From the NCBI GenBank assembly GCA_964016885.1, contig OZ024741.1, positions 178,622,001 to 178,686,000 on the forward strand: a stretch of DNA of 64,000 nucleotides. Direction: 5' to 3'. The position numbers and the translations under genes were made by a program. Source of the DNA: Eledone cirrhosa (lineage: Eukaryota). Below the pieces are notes generated by a model. That model was not told where the DNA came from. It searched no databases and saw only the letters and a list, made by a program, of their open reading frames with translations. Below are positions 26,759 to 27,026 of the stretch, piece by piece (within the stretch, counting starts at the first letter, position 1; each line of letters starts with the position of its first letter).

Positions 26759-27026
26759 CCCGGAGCTTCCAACCGACATGGTTGCATTCTTTAAGGGTAT
26801 GTCAATATTTGTTTATAAAACTGATCTATATTATATTTTATCTGATGAAAGCGCACCATAATTTGCTTTGGTGTCCTTGAAATATGTATAATGAAATAAA
26901 TATGGTTTTATAAATATAGTTTCCATTTGTTAATATATTGTATTTGTACTCCAAAAATTAGTTGAGTGCTTTATATCAGTTATAAAAATGTTTGCTTGTT
27001 GTATCTCAACAAATTAAATATAACTT
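26759..27026 (+). mobile_element. pLTR 3' fragment of the TATATA-HHR family, ending in (TA)n
   Basis: Homologous to 29031-29250, 3263-3420 and the tail at 5520-5622. Confidence 0.75.
26834..26898 (+). ncRNA. Minimal type I hammerhead ribozyme
   Basis: tattttat-CTGATGA-aagcgcacca..tggtgtcctt-GAAA-tatgta-TA-atgaaata. Confidence 0.8.

Follow-up and report, generated by a model that had tools for sequence, protein, structure and literature searches.

Why Penelope-like elements (PLEs) keep introns and what their hammerhead ribozymes do are both treated as open questions by Craig et al. 2021 (PMC8557442). A locus at position 26797 of the window, the whole 64,000-nt stretch of DNA analysed here, touches on both: does the hammerhead of a PLE pLTR lie within a short spliceosomal intron? 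An earlier note had proposed that it does, that splicing would remove the ribozyme to give a stable mRNA, and that unspliced RNA would cleave itself and serve as template for reverse transcription. Our analysis indicates that the donor-like motif behind this proposal is real but unexplained, and that the acceptors named and the cleaved-template step fail.

Identity of the element

The window comes from a 3.0-Gb animal genome (G000) rich in (TA)n and holds multiple Penelope-like fragments, namely a family F element, two ORF ends and three short pLTR copies (Table 1). The copy at 26797 is the short pLTR of a Hydra-clade PLE, a known element type, as judged from protein motifs and structure, the family tree having taken in G000 sequences only. 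Its 5' end fails to reach the inferred start site by about 4 nt. Single ORFs of 741 aa in family H2 and 729-784 aa in family F join a reverse transcriptase (RT) to a C-terminal GIY-YIG domain; Atlas neighbours bear GIY-YIG, RVT_1 and HTH_animal, and a Pfam scan gave no match. Hydra-clade characters are the motifs RWR and DKT in the H2 protein and RWK and DKT in that of F, the CxCx5C linker together with the endonuclease CxxC and CxH in H2, insertion into (TA)n, and tandem and inverted pLTR structures with a tail. These protein motifs, the structure of the copies and the pairing of the ribozyme helices support the earlier identification of a PLE pLTR carrying a hammerhead.

Table 1. Positions of the PLE copies in the window and of the features of the H1 copy
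Feature	Position	Strand	Remarks
Short pLTR-plus-tail copy, Hydra-clade PLE family H1	26759..27026	+	97-98% to many copies; ends mapped
DPE-like RGWYV box	26780..26784	+	+27 from inferred Inr
Donor-like motif G/GTATGTC	26796..26803	+	45 nt 5' of core
Predicted minimal type I hammerhead	26808..26916	+	helix I extended to ~26 bp
Hammerhead parts	core CTGATGA 26842-26848; helix II 26849-26878; GAAA and palindromic helix III 26879-26890	+
Conserved TTTCCATTT	26920..26940	+	predicted partner of motif GG in several subfamilies
Tail hairpin TACTC/GAGTG with 2-nt bulge	26947..26968	+	holds private AG at 26960-61
TATCAG, strongest acceptor candidate left for H1, H2 and C8	26974..26979	+	would-be intron ~183 nt
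Family H2 3' fragment	3265..5321	-	GIY-YIG ORF end 4647-5321, then 3' UTR
Parts of H2 fragment	Inr-like site 3451; motif 3402-3408; core 3357-3363	-
Tail of H2 fragment, inverted	~5520-5620	+
Tail-less copy, sister subfamily	29033..29200	-	motif 29166-29172; core 29126-29132
Family H4 copy	42004..42200	-	ATATGTC in window; GTATGTC in most family copies
Family H3 copy	62014..63666	-	ORF end 63235-63666; core 62194-62200; TACTCCAG hairpin 62089-62096; without GT donor
Family F element between two pLTRs	22732..26575	-	ATG at 25799
Family F hammerhead-like halves, split	26116-26122 and 26014-26025	-	no pairing helix I

The hammerhead ribozyme

The putative core has what characterizes a minimal type I PLE hammerhead, i.e., CUGAnGA, GAAA, helix II, a palindromic helix III, UH and helix I, and the predicted cut in the H1 copy falls after 26890. 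A tight core pattern occurs at 51,756 or more places in G000 and nowhere in the backwards controls; family H3 is common, accounting for 47 of the first 100 core-pattern matches listed. Differing letters form helices I and II in most of the 15 subfamily representatives compared, and helix III is self-complementary in 14 of the 15 (one with a mutated GAAA). A local Rfam scan at the core returned no hammerhead match, and microsatellite matches dominated the Rfam list for the whole window (150 of 174 rows listed). A type III reading that takes the GUC of the donor-like motif for the cut site failed on visual inspection, as it leaves helix I at most 3 pairs.

Other hammerhead-like sequences were noted. 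Families F and F2 (window 26014-26122, minus strand; L129, L130, L133) have hammerhead halves split by a loop II of 65-80 nt. Helix I does not form in F; it forms in F2 (AGGT/ACCT), where the loop holds an AG/GTAACT able to pair over the cut site, and the ATG of F2 is preceded by textbook CTAAT, pyrimidine tract and CAG. On the acceptor side, F2 is a better candidate for a putative intron than the families to which the earlier note pointed. Another short repeat, at 26713 and 41032 on the plus strand and at 21966 and 40024 on the minus strand, contains a minimal hammerhead whose helix I has 5 bp and whose palindromic helix III reads CAATTG; one of its copies is directly 5' of the 26759 pLTR. 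A CTGATGA..GAAA core is likewise found in a third short repeat, at 10137 and 41859 (both plus), which is also present in the flanks of other loci.

Repeat layout and inferred start site

H2 (L073, L075, L085), H1 (L092, L095, L097, L098), C8 (L194) and C5 all have tandem copies, with a pLTR that continues into the following ORF. Their order is Inr-like ACTRYC, DPE-like box, G/GTAYGTC, hammerhead, pLTR end, CTC/GAG hairpin, tail end, second hairpin and ATG, the last about 240 nt 3' of the core. The pLTR ends at 26940, where inverted copies stop (with loose ends). Spacing between the Inr-like site and the DPE-like box is fixed, and RGWYV stands at +27/+28 in 19 of 29 related variants, which are not independent, against 1.9 expected by shuffling. 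The 5' ends of 19 of 27 H1 copies lie at -89 to -80 from the core, i.e., at the Inr-like site (30 loci, of which the anchor missed 3; all had been picked for reaching at least -84). From this we infer that transcription would start at the Inr-like site, some 88 nt 5' of the core. Around the cluster of 5' ends of H4 copies (L100, L110, L121, L126), TATATAAA lies about 30 nt upstream and the GTTGAGTG motif of the tail hairpin is repeated just downstream.

A conserved donor-like motif

G/GTAYGTC is found 26-47 nt 5' of the core at 37,217 places in G000 and at a single place in the backwards control; against the background composition, 30 nt would contain GGTAYGTC with a probability of 0.0006. Counted from the inferred Inr/DPE start, the motif occupies +39 to +46, and it is common to H2 and H4, whose endonuclease regions are only ~43% identical. 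Conservation is stronger than the earlier note stated. The letters it reported are all present at the places it named; the spacing to the core is not fixed. GTATGTC is the family state of all four copies, and the GTAAGT at 3408 and the ATATGT at 42172 are deviations of those copies. The first AGs after the motif lie within 26 nt or inside the core; consequently, as had been argued, any splicing from a donor at this place would have to span the ribozyme.

Variation within the motif is uneven. Genome counts give 7,152 places where +1 is not G and 1,024 where +5 is not G, next to the 37,217 intact ones (16% vs 2.7% overall), yet nearly all change at +1 belongs to one branch, with a 37-nt spacing, which contributes about 95 of 100 listed +1 variants. 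There A, T and C each occur frequently at +1, and TAYGTC is kept. Outside this branch, change at +1 is near 1% (extrapolated from the matches listed), about as steady as +5, and seven subfamilies or more, H2 and H4 among them, retain the G at +1. Among 27 representatives (H3 left out; three rows re-read by eye), -1 is G in all and +1 is G in 23. Some copies of the 37-nt branch have a weak AAG/GTAT 15 nt upstream and others no usable GT, ORF-linked ones included: the tandem copies L201 and L215 keep TATGTC and lack a usable donor. The C at +7 is also kept, although it served as an anchor; a splice site does not need it. Before the ribozymes of F and H3, abundant families that have spread widely without it, the motif was not found. 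A layout of donor, hammerhead and acceptor common to all, as formerly supposed, is not supported, being absent in F, H3 and part of C5. CATATGTC of family F was considered as a homologue of the motif and rejected, being F's own helix III and cut site.

Predicted folds place the first bases of the motif against the 3' side, at the far end of helix I, in H4, H4b, C12, C5G, C5T and C8; for H1 and H2, the helix I fold leaves the motif unpaired. Another partner would be the 5' strand of helix II, pairing with which would keep the ribozyme off during transcription. Modelled nascent RNAs give this pairing a probability of 0.8-1.0 for H2, C7, C10 and C17, but close to 0 for H1, H2c, H4, H4b, C8, C5G and C12, so it is not general; moreover, variants with C at +4 show no matching change in the partner, and alternating purine-pyrimidine strands pair readily. 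We regard this explanation as quite improbable.

Acceptor candidates

None of the acceptors named before withstands comparison of the copies. The AG at 26961 is private to the window copy: column 26959-61 reads TTG in 23 of 27 family copies, CTG in 3 and TAG in this one alone. The TACTCCAG site belongs to the CTC/GAG hairpin, which coral elements also carry, and at 62089 it lies in a copy of H3. The CTAAT..GCATAG (42457-42461 and 42440-42445, minus strand) is ~270 nt upstream of the 42172 donor, past (TA)n, and as flanking DNA it cannot provide an acceptor for that copy. As for the CAG at 25831, F has no donor-like motif before its ribozyme; the CAG sits inside the second CTC/GAG hairpin, and the homologous column reads CTG in H1, CCG in H2 and CGG in H3.

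The tail offers little else. After TACTCC, AG is present in 46 of 103 tail copies and AA in 51. The only AG kept throughout is that of the GAG in GTYGAGYG, which pairs with CTC in most families; GAG is a rare acceptor type. This CTC/GAG hairpin recurs before the ATG with a compensating change from A-U to G-C, and its predicted stability does not exceed that of shuffled sequences in most families. The later TCAG has its AG in 78 of the 103 tail copies, a sample weighted to H1 and H2. TATCAG and TACTCCAG each occur in only 8 of the 15 subfamily representatives, and a YAG is expected in any 30 nt with a chance of P = 0.56. In these 15 representatives and 103 tail copies, a YAG conserved across families with branch site and pyrimidine tract was not found.

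A working intron could nevertheless have lineage-specific ends. The motif would then be the 5' splice site in most subfamilies, and an intron of ~160-185 nt would hold the whole hammerhead and end at TATCAG in H1, H2 and C8 and at TACTCCAG in H4 and C10; spliced RNA, freed of the ribozyme and upstream ATGs, would be the mRNA and unspliced, uncleaved RNA the template. The position of the motif, which matches that of the D. virilis Penelope donor, is our best argument for a donor. Donor scores are 2.6-5.8 in 50 GT copies (4 or more is reached in 5.7% of random 90-nt stretches), and GT is retained over deep splits. Splicing would also take out most upstream ATGs, of which four related families have 4, 5, 3 and 2 from the motif to +79 and 0, 0, 0 and 1 from there to the start codon (~2.3 expected in each). 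One of the two YAGs is present in 13 of the 15 representatives, but this is near chance, about three lacking both being expected and two seen, and C7 and C17, whose donors are perfect, show neither of these YAGs over the stretch covered. Against an intron also count the weak pyrimidine tracts (9-12 of 20), the loss of the donor in ORF-linked C5 copies, its absence in F and H3, and the retention of TAYGTC without GT. We hold such an intron to be possible but doubtful.

A good donor with no conserved acceptor might instead bind U1 without splicing. U1 suppresses polyadenylation, and AATAAA stands at or just beyond the cut in H1-H4, so that bound U1 could hold back 3' end formation there and allow readthrough into the tail and the next unit. 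Yet helix I pairing also constrains the AATAAA, which is altered in C5, and neither the kept +7 C nor the GT-less branch would be explained. We consider this role unlikely.

Which RNA is copied

Sequence 3' of the cut served to select 29,429 copies; of the first 100 listed, counted by eye, 94 keep ribozyme sequence 5' of it. In the other 6 the break falls between -13 and +2, at a point that for 2 copies would fit the cut itself. Copies that run across the cut and, in H1, reach the inferred start site (19 of 27) point to templates that were neither cleaved nor spliced. This contradicts the proposal that cleaved unspliced RNA is the RT template, as do the available data on the Anolis Poseidon PAc, where hammerhead mutants insert normally and the main substrate is unprocessed RNA (PMC11167929). 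Re-ligated circles could restore the cut site but would not yield ends at the start site. Only the few broken copies speak for the full switch, which copy structure largely refutes and which we consider highly improbable.

Searching for the exon junctions of three acceptor classes of H1/H2 revealed no precise intronless copy. The three matches obtained were all single-copy microhomology deletions, which indicates that the search could see a single junction. Lack of an intronless retrocopy speaks against an intron only weakly, since PLEs are known to keep introns. Reads X1-X3, from one sample that resembles genomic DNA, showed no GT..AG joint at the H2 and H1 junctions, a result with no bearing on splicing.

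Proposed role of the motif

We see an even chance that this is an ordinary Hydra-clade pLTR in which G(G)TAYGTC is a conserved non-splicing element at the base of a long helix I, the acceptor-like sites being parts of the predicted tail hairpin. The missing conserved acceptor after the ribozyme is what makes a non-splicing job of the motif likely. Beyond the order of motifs, the copy ends and the family distribution, which are observed, the working of the element may be pictured as follows. An internal Inr/DPE promoter would start the RNA, which would pass the motif, the hammerhead and the two CTC/GAG hairpins into the ORF of the next unit. The element's protein would bind the hairpin region and, beginning at the end of the tail, reverse-transcribe RNA that has undergone neither splicing nor cleavage. 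Within the motif, GG would likely assist in closing helix I, opposite TTTCC or the sequence that takes its place, and a protein, either the RT or a promoter factor, would likely recognize AYGTC by its sequence.

Several observations count against this non-splicing role: +1 G is kept outside the 37-nt branch, the motif is unpaired in the H1/H2 fold, upstream ATGs are biased, and the position matches that in D. virilis. In addition, lineages that lack the donor may have been mobilized in trans. Given copies in the tens of thousands, an inferred start site, a candidate donor and natural donor-less branches, the question is cheap to test. Were the intron true, mRNA and template would differ by the ribozyme, and this would be a Penelope-like element with an intronic ribozyme; were it not real, TAYGTC and the CTC/GAG hairpin would be candidate binding sites for the element's protein.

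Other features of the window

A palindromic GC-rich short repeat with nested copies (28800-29480) often adjoins pLTR copies in other loci. The near-perfect large inverted repeat at 42455-47815, whose arms span 42455-44587 and 45728-47815, includes a fragment of GIY-YIG (45268-45792) and is probably another PLE in inverted arrangement. An intact-looking LINE occupies 55043-60298 on the minus strand (ORF1 of 597 aa, endonuclease-RT ORF2 of 1153 aa), and a tRNA-like Rfam match of 32 bits at 7825-7892, plus strand, is possibly a SINE head.

Comparison with known systems

Our literature search, mostly of open-access articles, found no description of a hammerhead wholly within a PLE intron or of the G/GTAYGTC motif. 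The elements share with Hydra-clade PLEs such as Hydra-1_Obim and Hydra-2_Amil the C-terminal GIY-YIG, RW(K/R), DKT and the CxCx5C linker, as well as (TA)n insertion, a hammerhead in the pLTR and a CTC..TTGAG tail hairpin (Craig et al. 2021, PMC8557442); the tail of the coral Hydra-2_Amil has the same hairpin shape. Unlike the G000 families that carry the motif, two coral Hydra-clade consensus 3' ends have no GGTAYGTC before the ribozyme, and the accessible sections of PMC8557442 mention no promoter, donor or long helix I for the clade.

The Anolis PAc may be likened to these elements in that its reverse transcription begins internally, at a stem-loop by which the tail is marked, and in that uncleaved RNA is the template, but its ORF, as described, starts inside the ribozyme (PMC11167929), whereas the ATG lies well past the core here. 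Were the intron real, the elements would share a race between cleavage and splicing with intronic ribozymes such as that of CPEB3, which differs in its host gene, its HDV-like fold and in that its splicing was shown (PMC10919898).

The closest parallel to the donor-like motif comes from D. virilis Penelope, which has an internal Inr and DPE promoter, a ribozyme just downstream and unspliced genomic copies (PMC2377424; PMC4209133). A 75-nt intron in its 5' UTR was demonstrated by RT-PCR, and its spliced donor lies at +46 from the start, near the motif here when compared by position, not letters (PMC2377424). That intron is reported to end at the 5' end of helix I, so the ribozyme stays in the spliced RNA (PMC4209133). 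The G000 families belong to a different PLE clade and lack a conserved acceptor, and with only 26-47 nt from motif to core any intron in them would, unlike that of D. virilis, contain the ribozyme.
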